A stretch of DNA of 62,607 bases, filler included. It is 4 parts of 4 records of this genome, joined end to end, with 100 filler letters (N's around TTAATTAATTAA, not from the genome) between each part and the next. Parts side by side here need not be neighbours in the genome. Positions count along the whole stretch, not along the records: positions 25,786 to 56,607 come from SRR31156797_1850; 3 more parts are not named here. One strand, given 5' to 3'. Numbering within the stretch: the stretch's first letter is position 1; the number at the start of each line of letters is the position of its first letter. Both the position numbers and the translations under genes were made by a program. Below are positions 25,143 through 32,791 of this stretch, piece by piece. The notes beneath the pieces were generated by a model. That model saw only the letters and a program-made list of their open reading frames with translations, made no database searches and was not told the DNA's origin.

Positions 25143-25685
25143 ATGGCAGTAAAGAACTATATACTGGTTTGTGGCGGTACCGCCTGTGAATCCGCGAAGG
25201 GAGATGATATCTACAAGAACCTCCTGAAGGAAGCGCAGGAACAGGGTGTTGCCGACGACGTACAGATTGTTAAGACCGGATGTTTCGGTTTCTGTGAAAA
25301 GGGACCCATCGTAAAGGTTCTTCCCGAACAGGCCTTCTATGTAGAGGTCGTTCCCGAGGACGCCAAAGAGATCATCGCCGAAACCGTTATCAAGGGACGT
25401 ATCGTAGAGCGCATCCAGTACCAGCCCGAGAAGGGCGCCAAGGGCGATGCCTTCGATATCGACAACATAGAGTTCTACCAGAAGCAGTACAGAATCGTTC
25501 TGAGAAACTGCGGTCTGATCAACCCCGAAAACATCGACGAGTACATCGCCAGAGACGGTTATGCCGGCCTGGAGAAGTGTCTGTTCGAAATGAAGCCCGA
25601 AGATATCATCGAAGAGCTCAAGGTCTCCGGACTCCGCGGACGCGGCGGTGCGGGATTCCCCACCTGGATGAAGTGGAACTTCACC
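25143..25685 (+). CDS. NuoF-like flavin subunit (HydB/HndC type), 3' truncated
   Basis: [38 protein letters not shown]. Confidence 0.92.
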
Positions 25686-25785
25686 NNNNNNNNNNNNNNN
25701 NNNNNNNNNNNNNNNNNNNNNNNNNNNNNTTAATTAATTAANNNNNNNNNNNNNNNNNNNNNNNNNNNNNNNNNNNNNNNNNNNN
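25686..25785. other. artificial contig spacer
   Basis: N44-TTAATTAATTAA-N44. Confidence 0.98.
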
Positions 25786-25818
25786 AGCCCTCCCGGATTA
25801 ATCCGGGAGGGCTTTTTT
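25786..25818 (+). terminator. intrinsic terminator
   Basis: AGCCCTCCCGGA-TTAA-TCCGGGAGGGCT followed by TTTTT. Confidence 0.85.
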
Positions 25819-25882: not shown

Positions 25883-26473
25883 ATGAACATCAAAGGCTTC
25901 TTAAAAACCGCAATCCTGCCTGCCGCCCTGCTGGCAATGACAGTTACATCAGCAGCGGCTGACGAAAAAATATTTACTGTAATCAACCATACAGATTCCG
26001 TGATCCGAGTCTGGGGCAAATCCAATGATTACAAATTCGGGCGCATCAAGCCCAAAACCATTGCCGACTGCACCTGCAACGCTCTTTACAATAAAGACTG
26101 CTTTGACAAAAAAGGCGGCAAGGCCAAGATCAAACTGGCCCTTGAAGCCAAAAACGGCAAAGACCTTTACTCCGGGGACACCTGCACCAAGCTTTACGTT
26201 GATCCCGGAACATTCATTGATGTCACTTACGACACTGATAGAAGACACATCCGCTGCGCCATCATTGATAAATATGAAATCAGACAACCCATTCCTTCAT
26301 TTGAAGAAGCTGACACCAATAAGGATGGAAAGATTGACGAGCAAGAAGCCGAGGCTATCCAGTTGAAATCAAACTTTAAGGATTTTGACGATGACCTGAA
26401 CCGGGAACTGAACCCCAAGGAATTTGATAGGGCTATCGATAAAATCAATATTTTTCGCGGCGTACCTTTCTAG
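25883..26473 (+). CDS. secreted protein with C-terminal EF-hand pair
   Basis: Signal peptide ending SAAA; loops DTNKDGKIDEQE and DDDLNRELNPKE. Confidence 0.7.
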   Translation: MNIKGFLKTAILPAALLAMTVTSAAADEKIFTVINHTDSVIRVWGKSNDYKFGRIKPKTIADCTCNALYNKDCFDKKGGKAKIKLALEAKNGKDLYSGDTCTKLYVDPGTFIDVTYDTDRRHIRCAIIDKYEIRQPIPSFEEADTNKDGKIDEQEAEAIQLKSNFKDFDDDLNRELNPKEFDRAIDKINIFRGVPF

Positions 26474-26486
26474 CACTGGAGCAATT

Positions 26487-27005
26487 ATGACCAAGAGCAA
26501 TCCTGTACTTGAAGCTATTTTTGAACGCCGTTCCATCAGAAAATTCACTGCTGAACCTGTTTCAAAAGAGGACCTGACCGCCATTCTGGAAGCCGGACGC
26601 TGGACACCCAGCGGACTGAACAACCAGCCATACCGTTTTCTGGTTATCCATGACGATGACGCGCGAGTCGAACCACTCGCTGAATGCACCAAGTACGGGC
26701 ACATCGTCAAAGCTGCCAAGGTGCTGCTCTGCGTCTTTCTGGACAAGCAGGCCATGTACAGCGAAATGAAAGATCATCAGGGCGCTGGAGCATGCACCCA
26801 GAACATGATGCTAGCCGCCCATTCACTCGGACTGGGAACCGTCTGGCTGGGTGAAATAATCAATCAGCAGGATCAGTTTTTGGAAGTAATCAAACTTTCT
26901 GCTGAACGTTATGAACTGCAAGTCGTTATTGCCCTCGGCCACCCGGATCAGCAGGGCAGCTCAAAACGAAACGAACTCTCAGAATATATGTTGGAGGATT
27001 TTTAA
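26487..27005 (+). CDS. nitroreductase-family protein
   Basis: RRSIRKF, PSGLNNQP, QNMMLAAHSLGLGTVW; ATG 26487 follows GGAG. Confidence 0.92.
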   Translation: MTKSNPVLEAIFERRSIRKFTAEPVSKEDLTAILEAGRWTPSGLNNQPYRFLVIHDDDARVEPLAECTKYGHIVKAAKVLLCVFLDKQAMYSEMKDHQGAGACTQNMMLAAHSLGLGTVWLGEIINQQDQFLEVIKLSAERYELQVVIALGHPDQQGSSKRNELSEYMLEDF

Positions 27006-27631
27006 TGGAAATCAAGATTTTTCCCCTCGGTCCGCTAGAGACCAACTGTTTTGTAATTGTTAACGAGAACAAAGCGCTGGTCATTGATCCGGGCGGCGAC
27101 CCGACTCAGGTGCTTTCCTATCTGAAAAAAACTGGAGTTGAGCTGGAGCGCATCCTGAACACCCATCTCCACTTTGACCATATCCTCGGTAACCGCGCGC
27201 TGGCCGACGCTACCGGTAAAACCATCTATGCCTCAAACGACGACCTCGTGCTCATGGACACACAGGTCGGACGCGGCGGCCTGATGGGCTTCCCGGAAGT
27301 TCCCCATTTTGATACCGAGCACATCGGTGAAGGCGAGACCGAGCTGATCGGTCTAGAATGTAAGATCTACTCTACCCCCGGACACACTCCGGGCAGCCTG
27401 ACCTTTCATTTTCCAGCCCTGAAATCCGCAATCGTTGGAGACCTCATTTTCCGCCGCTCCATCGGCAGAACCGATTTCCCCTACGGTGACACTGAACAGC
27501 TGCTGAATTCAGTCAAAGAAAAAATATTCACCCTCCCTGCTGAAACTGAACTCTTCGCCGGACACGGTCCCTCGACCAGCGTTGGAGACGAAATGAATCA
27601 CAACCCCTATTTCAGCGGGGTTCATATCTAA
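27005..27631 (+). CDS. MBL-fold metallo-hydrolase (glyoxalase II/YcbL-like)
   Basis: THLHFDH, TPGHTPGS, GDLIF, GHGP. Confidence 0.92.
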   Translation: MEIKIFPLGPLETNCFVIVNENKALVIDPGGDPTQVLSYLKKTGVELERILNTHLHFDHILGNRALADATGKTIYASNDDLVLMDTQVGRGGLMGFPEVPHFDTEHIGEGETELIGLECKIYSTPGHTPGSLTFHFPALKSAIVGDLIFRRSIGRTDFPYGDTEQLLNSVKEKIFTLPAETELFAGHGPSTSVGDEMNHNPYFSGVHI

Positions 27632-27643
27632 ACGGAGGACAAT

Positions 27644-27886
27644 ATGACCGAACAGAAGATCGTTGATGTCCGTAACAAATGCTGAGGCGTAGGACTGGAG
27701 GTAGGTTGGTACCTCCGTTTTGCGCGGAACGATGAAATAACCGCCCTAGTGGATAAAGGCACTGTAGAGCAGCTCTACCATCAGCTGGAAATCCTGCCCG
27801 AATGGACCCTTGAAACCTTTGAAGAGGAAGATCACGTGCGCGCGGTCTTCCGCAGCAAAATTCCGCGGGGCAAAAAAAACGATTAA
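27644..27886 (+). CDS. small TusA/SirA-like selenoprotein (Sec at codon 14), missed by ORF track
   Basis: RBS GGAGG 27634-27638; ATG 27644; in-frame TGA 27683-27685; frame open to TAA 27884-27886: MTEQKIVDVRNKCUGVGLEVGWYLRFARNDEITALVDKGTVEQLYHQLEILPEWTLETFEEEDHVRAVFRSKIPRGKKND. Confidence 0.82.
27687..27725 (+). promoter_or_regulatory. bacterial SECIS element
   Basis: Lower stem GCGTAGGAC/GTTTTGCGC, bulged T, upper stem GGAGGTA/TACCTCC starting 11 nt after the TGA, loop GGTTGG. Confidence 0.8.
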
Positions 27887-27888
27887 AG

Positions 27889-28494
27889 ATGAAACAACAA
27901 CCGGTAATATTCAAATGCAGCCACCACAGAAAAGGTAACAGCGACCTTGCTGCCGAACTTTTTCTCAAAGGAATCCAATCAGCAGGAGGCGACGCCGAAA
28001 CAGTCACCCTCGGCGATATGGATTTCAAACATTGTATCGGCTGCCTGAAATGCCGCACAGCAGCGGACAACCGCTGTATCTTTGCAAATAAGGACAGGGC
28101 GCAGGAATTATACGAGAAGATAATTTCCGCCCCTTTTACTTTCTTTGCCTCTCCTATATACTTCTACCATCTGCCCTCGCGGTTAAAGACCTTTATAGAC
28201 CGCGGTCAATGGGCCTTTGAAGCCGCGACAGGTAATTCCCCTGTGATGAACGGCCTGCAAAAACGCCCTGCTTATGCATGCCTCCTGGCCGGAAGGCCCA
28301 AAGGCGAAAAACTGTTTGAAGGCGCGGAGCTTTCGCTCAAATTTTTCCTCAGGTTCTTTCGGGCAGACCTTCAGCCTGCTATGGTCTTCAGAGGAATAGA
28401 CGAACCGCAGGACTTGAGCAGTAACGCTGAAAAATGCGCACTCATCACCCAATATGGAAAAGAAGCATGGCAAAGGAATATGAATAATGGCTGA
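27889..28494 (+). CDS. flavodoxin family / iron-sulfur flavoprotein
   Basis: SHHRKGNS, CIGCLKC...C, ASPIYFY, KTFIDR. Confidence 0.85.
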   Translation: MKQQPVIFKCSHHRKGNSDLAAELFLKGIQSAGGDAETVTLGDMDFKHCIGCLKCRTAADNRCIFANKDRAQELYEKIISAPFTFFASPIYFYHLPSRLKTFIDRGQWAFEAATGNSPVMNGLQKRPAYACLLAGRPKGEKLFEGAELSLKFFLRFFRADLQPAMVFRGIDEPQDLSSNAEKCALITQYGKEAWQRNMNNG

Positions 28495-28870
28495 AGATTT
28501 TTTTCCTGATTTGCGAGTTCTCGTGGCTGAAGATTCCGCTCCGGTACGGCTTGTGCTCAGAGCTTATCTTGGCAAGCTGGGTATTGAACCGTATTTTGCT
28601 GAAGATGGACGCGAAGCTTTGGAAATGCTGAGCGAAAACCGTTTTGACATGGCCTTCATGGATGTGCACATGCCGAAAATGGACGGAACTGAAGTCGTTG
28701 CCGAGATACGTAAAAAAGGGATGGTAATTCCGGTCATCGCCATGACCACCGGAGACAATCCGGACCTGCTGTCCAGATGCCTTGAATGCGGCTATGACAG
28801 CATCCTGCTTAAGCCGATCATAAAAGAAGACATTTTCCGTACAGTAAAAAAATTCCTCCCAACCTCCTAA
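28487..28870 (+). CDS. single-domain response regulator
   Basis: VLVAED, FMDVHMPKMDG, AMTT, LKP. Confidence 0.92.
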   Translation: MAEDFFPDLRVLVAEDSAPVRLVLRAYLGKLGIEPYFAEDGREALEMLSENRFDMAFMDVHMPKMDGTEVVAEIRKKGMVIPVIAMTTGDNPDLLSRCLECGYDSILLKPIIKEDIFRTVKKFLPTS

Positions 28871-28873
28871 GCA

Positions 28874-29617
28874 ATGTTCGCCCAGCTTCTGCGATACCTA
28901 TCTCCCGTTGCCGCGCTAAAGAGTCTTAAAAACGCATTTACTGAAAGACGATGCCCGGCCTGCCTGCGAATTCACACAGATAAAGGATTATGCTGCTCAT
29001 GCCTAGCCTTCATCGAAGCTAGACCGGAAAATATCTGCATAGTCTGCGGCAATGAATTCAACTCCCCGGATGCGAATGAACTACCCTGCATCAGCTGCCA
29101 GACTGTCCCCCGTAACTTCAGTAGACTTTACTTTTATAACATGCACCAAGGACAGCTGCGGGAAATGCTTCTGGACTGGAAGTTCAATAATCAATACGGC
29201 TACAACAAAATTTTCGGACAATTCATCGCTGATTTATGCGCTGATGTACCGGTAACAAATCACCCGGACCTGATTATCCCAGTCCCCCTGCACCCTTCAA
29301 GGTTGCGTAAACGTGGCTTCAACCAAGCCATTGTTCTTGCGCGTTATGCTGCCTTAGCACTCAAGACAGACCTTTCCAACCAAGCCCTGCTCCGAGCACG
29401 GAGAACCATTCCTCAGACCAGACTCAGCGGCGCTGAACGGCGTACCAATCTACATACAGCATTCACTGCTGTCCCGTCCCTCGTAGCAGGCAAAAATATC
29501 TTGCTCATAGACGACGTATACACCACAGGTTCCACAGTGGATGAGTGCTCCCGGACTTTGCTTGAAGCCGGAGCCCCCCGGGTGGAAGTTATGACTCTTT
29601 CTCGGGCCTTGATCTAA
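28874..29617 (+). CDS. ComF-family phosphoribosyltransferase-like protein
   Basis: Zn-ribbon CxxC pairs, PVPLH, RGFNQA, LLIDDVYTTGST. Confidence 0.92.
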   Translation: MFAQLLRYLSPVAALKSLKNAFTERRCPACLRIHTDKGLCCSCLAFIEARPENICIVCGNEFNSPDANELPCISCQTVPRNFSRLYFYNMHQGQLREMLLDWKFNNQYGYNKIFGQFIADLCADVPVTNHPDLIIPVPLHPSRLRKRGFNQAIVLARYAALALKTDLSNQALLRARRTIPQTRLSGAERRTNLHTAFTAVPSLVAGKNILLIDDVYTTGSTVDECSRTLLEAGAPRVEVMTLSRALI

Positions 29618-29689: not shown

Positions 29690-32600
29690 TTGTCCTTTAA
29701 TATCGCTGAATGGACCCGGATTATTCACAACAACACTCCTATATATCTCAGGCCCGAATCCCCGGACTGGTTTGTTCCCACCTCAACGGGTGATGCTCTA
29801 CTCTGCAATATGCAGAAAAAAAACAAGACAGAATTTTCGGAACTATCAATAGACGACAAACGTTTCCTCATGCGTCTGCCCGATGCGAACGAAACCATTT
29901 ATCCCGGAAGATACGAACAACTAAAAACAGAGACCCTGCGCGAACTCTGGTTTCACATCACCGACAATTGCAATATGTCCTGCTCCCATTGTTTGTTCTC
30001 ATCTTCTCCGCAAGCCAAGCGAGAACTGACTACAGAGCGTGTGCTGGAATTGACTGAACAAGCGGAAGAGTTAGGTTGCAAAATGTTCGCCCTCACCGGA
30101 GGAGAACCGCTGGTCCATAAAGGACTGGATAGAATTCTGACCCGCATGTTGGAAATCGAATCGAGCCATGTAGCTGTGCTGACCAACGGGTTGGCAGTGG
30201 AAACATTTTTCTCCAAACACCGCTACGATTTTAAGCGCTTGCATTTGCAGATCAGCGTAGACGGAATCGGCAAGACACACGATAAGCTGCGCGGCAAAGG
30301 CATGTTCGCCGCTCTTGAAAAATCACTGAATTGGCTTTCCGCAGAAGGCATCCCCTTCACCCTGTCCATGTGCGTGACTAAGGACAACGTACAGGAGATG
30401 AAGGATGTAGTAGAGTTCGCCGCCAGAACCGGGGCCTCCAACGTCCATTTCATGTGGTATTTTGTTCGTGGACGCGGTGAATCCGAGCAATTTATCAAAC
30501 CGGATAAAATTTATCCGCACCTGCTGGAAGCATGGGAAACCGGGGAACGTACCGGAGTGACCATCGACAATGTCGAAGCAGTAAAAAGCATGATTTTCGC
30601 TCCTTGCGGAACCATACACGACGGCTCAACTGCCGGGTGGGAATCACTTGCAATAGGACCGGATGAAAATCTTTATCCATCAGCCGCAACTGTCGATATT
30701 AGCAAGCTAGCCACCTGTATTAATGACAATTTAGAGCAAACATGGAAGCAAAGCCCCATCCTTGAAGAGCTGCGCAAAAGCAGTGGTAAAAACCTTAAAA
30801 ATCCTTTTAAGCTGATCCTCGGAGGCGGAGATACCGACCACAGCTATATGCATAAGCAAAGCTTCATCGGAGATGATCCATACAGCTCTCTTTATGAAAA
30901 GCTGGCCCTTGAACTTATCGCCCGTAAGTCTGCTGAGTCGAAACGGCACGACAGTCCGCGCTTGTTACTTAAAATGGGAGACAAACTGGACCGCTGTTCC
31001 GGACATGGTGCAGTGGCCCTGACCCACACAAACTGCCTGCTGGCCGTAGCAGGTAACAACAGCCTTGCCGTGGTTAAGGATTTCTACACCGAAGCGGCAG
31101 GTGTGGATCAGGATAAGATTATCAATCCGGCCGGTTATGAAGCCAAACTGATGGAGCACATCCCCTCAAAATACCGTTTTCGGGGTTACGGATGCGGTTC
31201 TCCAATCATGGACGCCGGAATTTCAAAAGGCGAACATGTGGTAGACCTCGGCTGCGGGCGGGGCATTGAATGCTTCATCGCAGCCAAAATGGTCGGACCA
31301 GAAGGCAGGGTAACCGGGATCGACATGCTTGCCCCCATGCTTGAACATGCCCGCGAAGGACAGGCTGCGGTTGCTGAAAAGCTCGGATATGACAACATGG
31401 ATTTCCGCAAGGGCTACCTTGAAACCCTGCCCATTGATGATGACTGTGCAGACCTGCTGCTTTCCAACTGTGTTCTCAATCTTTCCACGGACAAGCGGCG
31501 CACTTTTTCTGAGATGTTCAGGGTACTCAAGCCCGGAGGCAGACTAACCATATCTGACGTGGTTTGTGAGACTGAACCGGGACCGGAAATCCGTAATGAC
31601 GATACTCTGCACGGGGAATGCATTGCCGGAGCACAAACACAGAAAAACCTTTGTGGATTACTGGAAGAAGCAGGCTTCGAATCCCTGATCATGATCAAAC
31701 GGTTCCCCTACCGAACTGTGGGCGGACACCAATTCTTTTCCTTGACCTTCTCGGCCCGAAAGCCGAACGAAGGAGACATGGTCAAGACCGTCTACCGTGG
31801 ACCGCTTAAAACTGCTATTACCTCCAGCGGAGCCATACTCACTCCCGGAAGTGTCATAGAAATCCCGAAGCAGGAGGCAACCCTGCTCGGAGAACAATTG
31901 TTTATAATAAGTAATGATGGCGCGGTGGAAAATGTATTTATCGGTGAATCCTGCTGCTGCCCAACACCTGATTCTTTTGACAAACCGGATGCTGAAACCC
32001 AAAAAGAGCATACCCACACGGGCCTTTCCCTGAAAAGCATGGAAGGATGCATGGTTTGCGGGGCAGAATTGGAATACCTGACCTCATACCGGGAAATGAT
32101 TTGTGCCTTCTGCGGAGAAAAGCATGAAGCCAACGGGCATTGCGTGAACGGACACTTTGTCTGTGACAAATGTCATAGCGAAGACGGAATGGAAGTTCTG
32201 CCCCACCTGCTTAAGTCCAGCACAGAGACAGATATGATCGAGTTGCTCAAGAAAACACGCAGTCATCCGGCCATTCCCATGCACGGACCGGAACATCATG
32301 CCCTTATTCCTGGTGTAATTACAGCTGCTTACAGAAATAGTGGCGGGGGTATTGACGAGAGGGTCATAGATACGGCAATATCGCGCGGCGCAAAAGTTGC
32401 CGGAGGGTTCTGCGGATTCATGGGAGTCTGCGGGGCAGCCATCGGCGTAGGTACAGCCATGAGCGCCATTCTGGAAGCAACCCCGTTAACGGCGTCTGAA
32501 CGCTCCATTGCCCAGAAAGGGACACTCGCGGCTCTGAAAATGATTGCGGACATAGAAGCTGCGCGCTGCTGTCAGCGTGACTGCTGGTTGGCTTTAAAGG

Positions 32601-32791
32601 CTGCGGCACAAGTTTCAGAAGAGGTTCTGGGCTTGCGCCTTAAGGCAGATGCGCATATACTATGTGATCAAATGAGTACTAATAAAGAGTGCATGGGGCG
32701 CAATTGCCCGGTGATTAGAAACAGTAAGAGTAATCAACCGAATGTGATTCAACTTCTGGGGACGATAAAAAATTCTGAAAAAAAAGTTTAA
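29690..32791 (+). CDS. radical SAM / ArsM-like SAM methyltransferase / Cys-rich (DUF5714-like) fusion protein
   Basis: CNMSCSHC and LTGGEP; YGCGSP, VDLGCGRG, SNCVLNL, ECIAGA; C-terminal CMVC, CAFC, HGPEHH, CGFMGVCG, RCCQRD; TTG start after AAGGAG. Confidence 0.85.
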   Translation: MSFNIAEWTRIIHNNTPIYLRPESPDWFVPTSTGDALLCNMQKKNKTEFSELSIDDKRFLMRLPDANETIYPGRYEQLKTETLRELWFHITDNCNMSCSHCLFSSSPQAKRELTTERVLELTEQAEELGCKMFALTGGEPLVHKGLDRILTRMLEIESSHVAVLTNGLAVETFFSKHRYDFKRLHLQISVDGIGKTHDKLRGKGMFAALEKSLNWLSAEGIPFTLSMCVTKDNVQEMKDVVEFAARTGASNVHFMWYFVRGRGESEQFIKPDKIYPHLLEAWETGERTGVTIDNVEAVKSMIFAPCGTIHDGSTAGWESLAIGPDENLYPSAATVDISKLATCINDNLEQTWKQSPILEELRKSSGKNLKNPFKLILGGGDTDHSYMHKQSFIGDDPYSSLYEKLALELIARKSAESKRHDSPRLLLKMGDKLDRCSGHGAVALTHTNCLLAVAGNNSLAVVKDFYTEAAGVDQDKIINPAGYEAKLMEHIPSKYRFRGYGCGSPIMDAGISKGEHVVDLGCGRGIECFIAAKMVGPEGRVTGIDMLAPMLEHAREGQAAVAEKLGYDNMDFRKGYLETLPIDDDCADLLLSNCVLNLSTDKRRTFSEMFRVLKPGGRLTISDVVCETEPGPEIRNDDTLHGECIAGAQTQKNLCGLLEEAGFESLIMIKRFPYRTVGGHQFFSLTFSARKPNEGDMVKTVYRGPLKTAITSSGAILTPGSVIEIPKQEATLLGEQLFIISNDGAVENVFIGESCCCPTPDSFDKPDAETQKEHTHTGLSLKSMEGCMVCGAELEYLTSYREMICAFCGEKHEANGHCVNGHFVCDKCHSEDGMEVLPHLLKSSTETDMIELLKKTRSHPAIPMHGPEHHALIPGVITAAYRNSGGGIDERVIDTAISRGAKVAGGFCGFMGVCGAAIGVGTAMSAILEATPLTASERSIAQKGTLAALKMIADIEAARCCQRDCWLALKAAAQVSEEVLGLRLKADAHILCDQMSTNKECMGRNCPVIRNSKSNQPNVIQLLGTIKNSEKKV

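Follow-up and report, generated by a model that had tools for sequence, protein, structure and literature searches.

A conserved gene with an in-frame TGA in Desulfovibrionia that almost certainly encodes a small Cys-Sec protein with a predicted TusA-like fold

Between the end of an MBL-fold hydrolase gene at position 27631 and the start of a flavodoxin-like gene at 27889, both on the plus strand of the window (i.e. the whole stretch of 62,607 nucleotides that was analysed), lies an intergenic gap of 257 nt, and the question that it raises is whether it holds a gene in which an internal TGA is read as selenocysteine. A preliminary description had proposed exactly this, and when the letters were read again its account of the frame was reproduced in full. 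A Shine-Dalgarno sequence GGAGG (27635..27639, +), followed by 5 nt and an ATG at 27644, precedes a frame of 80 sense codons plus TAA (27644..27886, +, translated with TGA=U) that contains a single TGA, at codon 14; most relatives likewise carry a purine-rich GGAG-type box ahead of the homologous ATG. The TGA (27683-27685, +) comes directly after the codon of Cys13 (27680-27682, +), in the context VDVRNKC-U-GVG, and the frame ends with TAA at 27884-27886, 2 nt before the next ATG (27889). An antisense ORF over the same region (27612-28070, 152 codons) was rejected, as just 3 of the 31 sequences keep it open; in the closest relative, each of the three antisense frames is interrupted by stops.

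Whether the TGA ends a reading frame or belongs to it can be judged from relatives of the locus, among which the preliminary description had suggested looking for a conserved TGA, for TGA/Cys alternation and for covariation in the hairpin that follows. The Cys-TGA pair, the frame and the hairpin are present in 31 of 32 genome loci, and the in-frame motif Cys-TGA-G[VL]G[LMQ]E[VI]GWYLR occurs in 31 of the 32 as well as in every metagenome locus with upstream sequence (20 identified by script and, in addition, L076, a locus with Ns, in a metagenome scan based on the narrower alignment A5). Such a recurrence is far more than chance would produce. L032, tried as a relative, lacks the motif and was set aside as a chance match. 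In the codon-level comparison of 49 intact sequences (the protein alignment A1 has 31), TGA is found in all 49, with the Cys codon before it being TGC in 35 and TGT in 14. Invariant residues upstream of the TGA include D8 and C13; D8 is written GAT in 32 sequences and GAC in 17, R10 uses four CGN codons, and third-base variation is also seen at G15, V16 and G17. Third-base variation at invariant upstream residues shows that the sequence ahead of the TGA is coding, and in the same frame. Downstream, the invariant residues are G15...F26, W54 and H64, and there is no conserved restart after the TGA (GTG stands at codon 16 in 21/49, ATG at codon 18 in 19/49). Judged by this codon pattern, 27644-27886 is a real and strongly conserved protein-coding gene, with the conserved TGA that had been looked for and with coding-type conservation on both sides of it. 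The alternation of TGA with Cys did not appear: neither the 49 aligned sequences nor the 150 genome matches listed include a Cys form at the Sec position, and because there is no Cys homologue, selenoprotein prediction by the usual Sec/Cys criterion is inapplicable. Such homologues strengthen the prediction of a selenoprotein, but are not what defines one. The sole full-length database protein (P0024) has W at this position, which may go back to a TGA that was translated under code 4, or to a genuine TGG codon.

After the UGA, and inside the ORF, the RNA fold of 27680-27740 gives a hairpin at 27687..27725 (+) that agrees with the earlier account in each of its elements, namely a lower stem of 9 bp (27687-27695 / 27717-27725), a bulged U (27696), a perfect upper stem of 7 bp starting 11 nt after the UGA (27697-27703 / 27710-27716) and a G-led loop, GGUUGG (27704-27709). 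Its fold has an energy of -24.4 kcal/mol (z = -3.93), which 0 of 200 dinucleotide shuffles equalled. The upper stem is paired in 99.4% of cells, compared to 38-71% when slid. Stem pair 22-33 is GC in 20, GU in 11 and AU in 18 of the 49 sequences; the lineage with V20I (GTA to ATA) has TAT at Y23 without exception, so that this pair is never unpaired in the 49, and it is in this one compensated pair that the SECIS covariation was found. Synonymous sites are frozen in those codons that make up the upper stem and loop (GAG in 49/49, GTA or ATA in 47/49, GGT in 47/49 and CTC in 49/49); at the flanking invariant residues the third position has 0.86-1.64 bits. The lower stem is poorly conserved, several of its pairs being open in between one third and one half of the sequences. 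The preliminary description had likened the geometry to that of the E. coli fdhF SECIS, in which a bulged U lies within a short upper helix. This comparison stands for the 11-nt distance from UGA to upper stem and for the bulged U as such, but the bulge here is found beneath the upper stem of 7 bp, and conservation across the family does not extend to the lower stem. With its 6-nt loop led by GG, its stem of 7 bp, a distance of 18 nt between UGA and loop and an MFE below -7.5, the hairpin has all four features by which the bacterial SECIS (bSECIS) model is defined in section 5 of PMC13188914. Its position directly after the UGA and within the ORF is shared with bSECIS elements in general, whereas it is unusual for them that the stem-loop sequence hardly varies throughout a class.

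Genes for selenocysteine synthesis and insertion accompany the family: selA, selB, selD and tRNA-Sec all scored over cut-off in each of the five carrier genomes checked, i.e. relatives of the window's genome, including the closest one (90% protein identity). Neither Rfam nor the tRNA search gave a hit in the window itself. The selD gene of the carrier genomes itself contains one in-frame TGA, and its SECIS has a geometry similar to that of the hairpin at 27687-27725. With a TGA kept in 49/49, coding conservation on both sides, a frozen stem, a compensated pair and the Sec machinery in 5/5 carriers, the proposal of a hidden selenoprotein is borne out, and the internal TGA almost certainly encodes selenocysteine (Sec14).

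A profile search matched 170 of the 301 sampled genomes of the class Desulfovibrionia, with a TGA inside 150 of the 150 class-wide matches listed; in a phylum sample 4 of 401 genomes had a match, all four of them also in the class sample. Going by these matches, the family is widespread in Desulfovibrionia, which are sulfate-reducing bacteria. It has indeed been missed by gene callers, as had been supposed, in that database relatives are N-truncated and start just after the TGA (6/6 in one search, 26/29 in another), and those bearing a name are called 'hypothetical protein'. Two apparent fused relatives, P0027 and P0031, are TPR/STAND and zinc-finger proteins and were rejected as chance matches. 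The selenoprotein family is absent from Pfam, from NCBIfam and, as tabulated there, from the 2026 prokaryotic selenoprotein catalogue: no Pfam family matched the window protein or any of the 31 members, NCBIfam release 20.0 had no relevant match to the window protein or the 31 members (its only two hits were response-regulator models, with E 0.16-0.23), and a TusA-type entry is missing from Table 1 of PMC13188914, which covers all 119 families. When the family profile was searched against PDB sequences, 0 matches were obtained at E <= 10, and a literature search for TusA/SirA-like or Maridesulfovibrio selenoproteins yielded YedF and unrelated papers only.

As to what kind of protein this might be, the AF2 model (pLDDT 85.9) has strands at residues 5-8, 31-36, 54-60 and 65-71 and helices at 16-26 and 38-50, a predicted β-α-β-α-β-β two-layer sandwich like that of the TusA/SirA/YeeD sulfur carriers, with the Cys-Sec dyad predicted to lie in the loop capping helix 1, i.e. 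at the site of the TusA persulfide Cys. The top three structural matches are TusA-family proteins. In a Foldseek search against the PDB, TusA-family chains had the best TM-scores, while no match reached E <= 0.001, and hhalign against a 26-sequence TusA alignment covered 66 columns and placed Sec14 on the TusA Cys, in a weak alignment (E 0.0025, probability 12%). The Pfam model of TusA (PF01206) matched none of the 31 members at E <= 1, and in a six-frame search of five carrier genomes it found canonical TusA domains and missed the selenoprotein locus. The TusA/SirA-like assignment made earlier is thus upheld at the level of the fold, but not by the Pfam TusA model nor by the CPxP motif, which is absent from the start of helix 1. 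Two details of that assignment did hold, as Sec lies six residues past the conserved Asp of strand 1 (D+6), and CPxP is replaced by C-U-G, the sequence C-U-G-V-G being invariant in 31/31; TusA domains of the carrier genomes have C-P-[QGE]-P at this place. Compared to TusA/SirA/YeeD(TsuB) proteins (PF01206), the length (~75-80 residues), the sandwich topology and a reactive chalcogen residue capping helix 1 are alike, but the reactive residue here would be Sec with a vicinal Cys, the invariant W22, Y23, R25, F26, W54 and H64 have no TusA counterpart, and the neighbouring genes encode flavin reductases and an MBL hydrolase instead of sulfur-trafficking enzymes.

These neighbours, all on the plus strand, are well conserved. 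A nitroreductase-family flavoprotein gene (26424..27005; Pfam Nitroreductase, 1.7e-29; 27/31 genome loci), whose stop overlaps the start of the MBL gene, is followed by the MBL-fold hydrolase gene (27005..27631; Pfam Lactamase_B, 1.8e-31), which is upstream of the selenoprotein gene in 31/31 loci; its product is of the short YcbL or glyoxalase-II type, with 7ev5, 7l0b, 2zwr and 2xf4 as best PDB sequence matches. Downstream, also in 31/31 loci, a flavodoxin-like FMN reductase (27889..28494; Pfam FMN_red and Flavodoxin_2) starts 2 nt after the selenoprotein stop. It has four invariant cysteines (C49, C52, C55 and C63 in alignment A7), and its AF2 model (pLDDT 91.3) is most similar in Foldseek to azoreductases and NAD(P)H:quinone reductases (E 2e-8). 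A response-regulator receiver gene (28487..28870; Pfam Response_reg, 2.4e-25) overlaps the flavoprotein stop and is limited to Maridesulfovibrio-type loci (10/31). The last conserved member of the cluster is a ComF-like phosphoribosyltransferase-domain gene (28874..29617; Pfam Pribosyltran, 2e-6), found in 28/31 loci with the three misses at contig ends. In the Desulfovibrionaceae the selenoprotein gene always lies between the glyoxalase-II-like hydrolase and the four-Cys FMN reductase (31/31 loci), and to judge by the spacing in the window, where genes overlap or are separated by 2-12 nt, they form a single operon. A second, YLRL-type subgroup, making up 14 of the 22 metagenome loci, does not have the Desulfovibrionaceae gene order.

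The following course of events can be envisaged for the product. SelB carrying Sec-tRNA(Sec) would be recruited by the in-ORF hairpin 11 nt past the UGA, so that codon 14 would be read as Sec and not as a stop, yielding the vicinal dyad Cys13-Sec14. This dyad may then alternate between a selenolate/thiol and an intramolecular selenenylsulfide, as in the GCUG chemistry of animal thioredoxin reductase: its selenium would take up an oxidising or a sulfane-sulfur/electrophilic substrate, and Cys13 would resolve the adduct on Se. Re-reduction might be provided by the presumably co-transcribed flavoproteins, i.e. the four-Cys FMN reductase downstream, which would be translationally coupled, and/or the nitroreductase-family protein, with the glyoxalase-II-like hydrolase possibly acting in the same detoxification or relay pathway. 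Both the proposed chemistry and the partners are suggested by gene order only, and the function, whether selenenylsulfide redox or S/Se relay, we can only infer. Taken as a whole, the explanation that the locus encodes a SECIS-recoded 80-residue selenoprotein with a predicted TusA-like fold and a putative Cys13-Sec14 redox mechanism seems to us about 80% probable.

The parallel with thioredoxin reductase has its limits. In the animal enzyme, Gly-Cys-Sec-Gly belongs to the flavoenzyme, at whose C-terminus it is part of a flexible tail, and neighbouring Cys and Sec residues with a Gly after them are able to form an eight-membered selenenylsulfide ring that a flavoprotein can reduce. This arrangement of Cys, Sec and Gly is alike, but there is no homology, and the dyad found here lies close to the N-terminus of a small α/β protein of its own, the flavoprotein being the product of a separate gene. 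Among bacterial selenoproteins, CU motifs have been catalogued in SaoL, SaoC, MbdU, HgcA, the Csac_0668 family and KCU-star/DUF466 (as given in PMC13188914 and 10.1101/2022.07.06.499078). On these accounts, those families and the present one have in common the Cys-Sec dipeptide and database entries that are cut off at the TGA, whereas fold and gene context differ. The local K-C-U context does recall the motif that gives KCU-star its name, but there Sec is by name C-terminal, while here 66 residues follow it. None of the 31 members matched the NCBIfam models of SaoL (NF040728), SaoC (NF040734), MbdU (NF045648), HgcA (NF040863) or KCU-star (NF033934).

An explanation without any selenocysteine would be that the TGA is a true stop, which would leave a 13-residue leader peptide, an attenuator or stability hairpin, and downstream either a separate small ORF or untranslated sequence. 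Gene callers do annotate only the part after the TGA, and a hairpin by itself could be a regulatory stem-loop. Under such a reading, however, there would be no place for a frame that is kept across the TGA in 49/49 with amino acids conserved on both sides, for the invariant Cys codon immediately before it or for the lack of a conserved start codon after it; moreover, the predicted first β-strand (residues 5-8), which precedes the TGA, belongs to a single domain that is modelled with confidence, the hairpin agrees with the SECIS model, and Sec is decoded by the hosts. A true stop is accordingly highly improbable. Two further readings accept the selenoprotein and differ in what the dyad is for. 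One of them, in which Cys13 and Sec14 together form a ligand for soft metals, metalloids or organometals, in a chaperone or a trap (for Hg, As, Cu or electrophiles), draws on the metal or organometal chemistry to which SaoL, SaoC, MbdU, HgcA and Csac_0668 are tied (in the accounts of PMC13188914 and 10.1101/2022.07.06.499078), and on the YLRL subgroup, where a MoeA/PBP_like fusion lies upstream in 4 of 8 examined loci, followed in 2 of these by a ZIP transporter. The conserved Desulfovibrionaceae cluster, on the other hand, contains no transporter, no MerR/ArsR regulator and no metal-resistance gene, and the 31 members have no sequence relation to the catalogued CU families by NCBIfam, so that we consider a metal ligand unlikely.

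The other would make the protein a TusA-type carrier, by analogy with the persulfide transfer carried out by TusA, DsrE and YeeD/TsuB: Sec14 would accept and hand on sulfane sulfur or selenium (as Se-S(H) or Se-Se), with Cys13 modulating or resolving. What speaks for a carrier are the three top-ranking structural matches, all of them sulfur carriers, the alignment of Sec with the TusA persulfide Cys (in the weak hhalign alignment of 12% probability) and the occurrence of YedF-like TusA-domain genes in the carrier genomes. DsrE-like, rhodanese-like and YeeE/YedE proteins, moreover, are already catalogued as sulfur-handling folds whose active Cys is replaced by Sec (Table 1 of PMC13188914), but for these and for YedF there are abundant Cys forms and recognition by Pfam/NCBIfam, neither of which applies here, and YedF in the carrier genomes keeps its CPQP motif with Cys. 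Against a carrier, CPxP and other near-invariant TusA columns are missing, the neighbouring genes encode flavin reductases and an MBL protein of the thioester-hydrolase type, and the conserved cluster is without a cysteine desulfurase, rhodanese, DsrE or DsrC-type partner; the sulfur-trafficking proteins looked for among the conserved neighbours (IscS, DsrE/TusBCD, rhodanese, DsrC and YeeE) were all absent. It is therefore conceivable, though somewhat doubtful, that the selenoprotein is such a carrier.

The SECIS-recoded selenoprotein with a putative redox dyad would have consequences beyond this locus. For Desulfovibrio vulgaris, eight selenoproteins are listed in PMC1794560, and the 2026 prokaryotic catalogue gives 119 families (PMC13188914). 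Sulfate-reducer selenoproteomes serve as reference sets, and a family that is found in 170 of 301 sampled Desulfovibrionia genomes with neither a model nor a catalogue entry is a sizeable blind spot, which exists because there is no Cys form and methods based on Sec/Cys homology cannot find the family. The sequences collected here would supply a family model for annotation pipelines, and the very clean SECIS, conserved over the whole class, would be material for studies of SelB recognition in Desulfovibrionia. The protein is furthermore small and tractable for asking why selenium would be indispensable at a vicinal Cys-Sec site, and it draws attention to a conserved operon in which the selenoprotein is joined by a glyoxalase-II-like hydrolase and two flavin reductases. 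A more tentative idea, to which we give rather little weight at present, is that this is an obligate-selenium TusA-fold family, lacking Cys forms altogether, in which the persulfide cysteine would have become a free-standing Cys-Sec selenenylsulfide centre that is recharged by a dedicated Fe-S flavoprotein, forming the core of an unrecognised Se-dependent defence or relay system in more than half of Desulfovibrionia species. If true, its targets would be sulfane sulfur, electrophiles or oxidants, and it would be a counterpart of the GCUG tail of thioredoxin reductase.

The stretch at 27644-27886 (+) very probably (at roughly 90%) encodes a real selenoprotein. Computation established the gene with its conserved UGA, a SECIS-type hairpin, a predicted fold and the synteny, as well as Sec machinery in relatives. 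Between the end of an MBL-fold gene (27631, +) and the start of a flavodoxin-like gene (27889, +), reading of the sequence places on the same strand a GGAGG (27635-27639) five bases 5' of an ATG at 27644, followed by a frame of 80 sense codons that ends in a TAA (27884-27886), two bases before the flavodoxin-like ATG. The sole break in this frame is a TGA at codon 14 (27683-27685, +), with a Cys codon immediately 5' of it (i.e. Cys13-Sec14), which is the layout given in the preliminary description. An antisense ORF at 27612-28070 was rejected as a gene, since it is not conserved.

The suggestion that gene callers miss this gene was borne out by database proteins. A word-indexed protein search returned six close relatives, all of 45-65 residues and beginning just past the TGA, the five named entries among them all being called 'hypothetical protein'. 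An exhaustive search with HMMER, covering 1.84 billion representatives, gave 29 matches, 26 of which are small and begin at query residues 16-21, or in one case at 36, which indicates truncation at the TGA; two others were rejected as unrelated large proteins, and P0024, a database protein of full length, carries W at the Sec position. At the nucleotide level, scanning a single genome from each species gave 32 loci, of which L032 was rejected as a match by chance. The other 31 (from Maridesulfovibrio, Pseudodesulfovibrio, Nitratidesulfovibrio, Desulfovibrio and MAGs) each hold a single frame, with an ATG 11-14 codons upstream and then the motif ...D-x-R-x-x-C-TGA-G-V-G-[LMQ]-E-V-G-W-Y-L-R-F.... 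When metagenomes were scanned with the E-I-G-W variant, 22 further loci emerged, and Cys-TGA was present in every one of these with upstream sequence.

Codon statistics were drawn from 49 intact sequences, excluding L019 and L086 (decayed), L072 (a duplicate), L076 (containing N) and L088 (5'-cut). Codon 14 is TGA in all 49, with coding conservation on either side, as expected for orthologues of a selenoprotein gene. The Cys codon ahead of it is TGC in 35 and TGT in 14, D8 is GAT in 32 and GAC in 17, and R10 uses four different CGN codons; this third-base variation implies that the sequence 5' of the TGA is evolving as a coding region and shares its frame with the sequence 3' of it. There is no conserved start codon after the TGA among the 49 sequences, the potential restarts being a GTG at codon 16 (21/49) and an ATG at codon 18 (19/49). 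In the decayed copies (L019, about 500-790; L086, about 2548-2700), which may be either true pseudogenes or errors of long-read assembly, the reading frame is lost shortly past the hairpin; L019 also has an interrupted frame for the downstream flavoprotein. Five Nitratidesulfovibrio-type loci (L023, L024, L026, L027 and L029) have the selenoprotein frame extended by 25-40 Gly/Pro/Asp-rich residues (about 3240-3333 in L029), ending in a conserved ...GGG[RH]HTGG[HR]GKE with a TAG just 5' of the flavoprotein ATG; L031, of the same type, has an earlier stop.

RNA folding of 27680-27740 reproduced the hairpin that had been claimed: the lower stem has 9 bp and is followed by a bulged U, the upper stem is a perfect 7-bp helix beginning 11 nt past the UGA, and the loop is the G-led GGUUGG (-24.4 kcal/mol; z = -3.93; equalled by none of 200 shuffles). 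It agrees with the consensus model of bacterial SECIS elements given in section 5 of PMC13188914 on each of the model's four constraints, the features scored being a 6-nt loop starting with GG, a 7-bp stem, a UGA-to-loop distance of 18 nt and an MFE far below -7.5. The selD SECIS of the same genomes is similar in geometry, its 7-bp G+C stem lying about 13 nt past the UGA and its loop being G-rich. Third-base entropy is 0.86-1.64 bits at the invariant flanking residues D8, C13, G15, V16, G17, R25 and F26, and only 0-0.29 bits within the stem-loop (49 sequences), where the frozen codons (GAG 49/49, GTA or ATA 47/49, GGT 47/49, CTC 49/49) include some that G+C-rich genomes disfavour. The single free stem-loop site, Y23 (TAC/TAT), swaps a G-C pair for G-U only, and in the V20I lineage (GTA to ATA) Y23 is always TAT, giving an A-U pair. 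The SECIS covariation that had been proposed as a check was therefore found at one stem pair, which is GC in 20, GU in 11, AU in 18 and unpaired in none of 49 distinct rows, a count that is not a probability, since the rows are related. Across the upper stem 99.4% of cells are paired, versus 38-71% with the partner slid; the lower stem is partly kept, several of its pairs being unpaired in one third to one half of the sequences.

In all five orthologue-carrying genomes checked (relatives of the window's genome, including the closest), selB, tRNA-Sec, selA and selD score above curated cut-offs, and selD itself holds one in-frame TGA; a scan of the window for tRNA and Rfam families found none. 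In an even sample of 301 genomes from the closest relative's class, 170 were matched by a profile built from the 31 sequences, and among the matches listed 150 of 150 have at least one TGA inside, none being stop-free (there are 30 further matches). In a phylum-wide sample 4 of 401 genomes matched, all four also being in the class sample. The anticipated alternation of TGA with Cys failed to appear, no Cys form being seen at the Sec position among the 49 aligned sequences or the 150 matches listed.

Every one of the 31 genome loci has the gene flanked by the MBL-fold hydrolase and the flavodoxin-like reductase, with a nitroreductase-family gene upstream in 27 and a ComF-like gene downstream in 28 (the absences being mostly at contig ends), and a response-regulator gene inserted in 10. 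The six genes of the window cluster either overlap or have no more than 12 nt between them, and are therefore likely to form one operon. The MBL protein is closest to short YcbL-type glyoxalase II enzymes (7ev5, 7l0b, 2zwr, 2xf4). The downstream flavoprotein, with no sequence match in the PDB, is modelled (pLDDT 91.3) with a fold like that of FMN-dependent azoreductases and quinone reductases (Foldseek E about 2e-8); the spacing of its invariant cysteines (C49, C52, C55 and C63) presumably resembles that of archaeal iron-sulfur flavoproteins. Main-group neighbours occur in 8 of the 22 metagenome loci, and the other 14 form a second subgroup (...Y-L-R-L...) with none of them. Of 8 such loci examined, 4 have a MoeA/PBP_like fusion upstream, and in 2 a ZIP transporter follows. 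Loci of this subgroup (L068-L080, L086) read ...KCUGLG[LM]EIGWYLRLSR..., with Cys-TGA and hairpin as in the main group.

Around the window cluster, a 1033-residue protein (29690-32791, +; radical-SAM, class-I methyltransferase domain and DUF5714) is conserved immediately 3' in Maridesulfovibrio-type loci, and a probable secreted 196-residue protein with an EF-hand calcium-binding motif (25883-26473, +), just 5', is conserved there only in such loci. At 25687-25785, twelve bases (TTAATTAATTAA) between two N runs look like an all-frame stop linker joining contigs, so that the window seems to be a concatenated draft; a NuoF/HydB-like ORF at 25143 is cut by this linker, and the selenoprotein cluster is on the piece starting at 25786.

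The likeness to TusA/SirA held for the predicted fold and site, and did not extend to the Pfam TusA model. None of the 31 members matched a Pfam or NCBIfam family, the family profile found nothing among PDB sequences, and a six-frame search of the five carrier genomes with the Pfam TusA model, which did recover their canonical TusA domains, left the selenoprotein locus undetected; the protein thus falls outside the TusA family as defined by Pfam. AlphaFold2 (31-row alignment) predicts a confident single domain (pLDDT 85.9, pTM 0.75) in the order β1 5-8, α1 16-26, β2 31-36, α2 38-50, β3 54-60, β4 65-71, with the Cys-Sec dyad in the α1-capping loop. Foldseek gave no match at E <= 0.001; its best TM-scores were to YeeD/TsuB (0.72), TusA (0.66) and a SirA-like protein (0.60). 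Further structural matches were to other IF3-like folds (Smr at 8.4, HP1264 at 8.1 and Alba around 7). A profile-profile alignment with 26 TusA domains from Desulfovibrionia genomes, weak in itself (E 0.0025 in a single comparison, probability 12%), spans 66 columns end to end and puts Sec14 on the TusA catalytic Cys, with Cys13 one residue earlier. The fold is probably TusA-like, and the dyad site is TusA-like. Each carrier (G001-G005) also encodes a ~200-residue protein (L033-L037) with an N-terminal TusA domain (C-P-Q-P) and a C-terminal part with C-G-T-C, which we take to resemble the selenium-metabolism protein YedF.

The recoding mechanism is ordinary, and the family appears to be undescribed. 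Table 1 of a 2026 review (PMC13188914) lists 119 selenoprotein families and subfamilies, among which there is no TusA-type family or any other that fits; its CU-motif families all have NCBIfam models, none of which matches the 31 members. The D. vulgaris selenoproteome, as tabulated in PMC1794560, has SelD, FdhA, DsrE-like, GlpC, HesB-like and FrhA only, and no published account of such a protein was found in the literature, subscription journals and supplements aside.

As to function, the protein could be a pure S/Se carrier, which we consider rather unlikely, or its role could be that of a metal or electrophile ligand, which seems improbable. Tentatively, a redox dyad is preferred: Sec14 and Cys13, capping helix 1, would be linked reversibly as a selenenylsulfide, through which the dyad may serve as a small relay (redox or S/Se), recharged by the neighbouring flavin reductases, with the glyoxalase-II-like hydrolase working in the same pathway.
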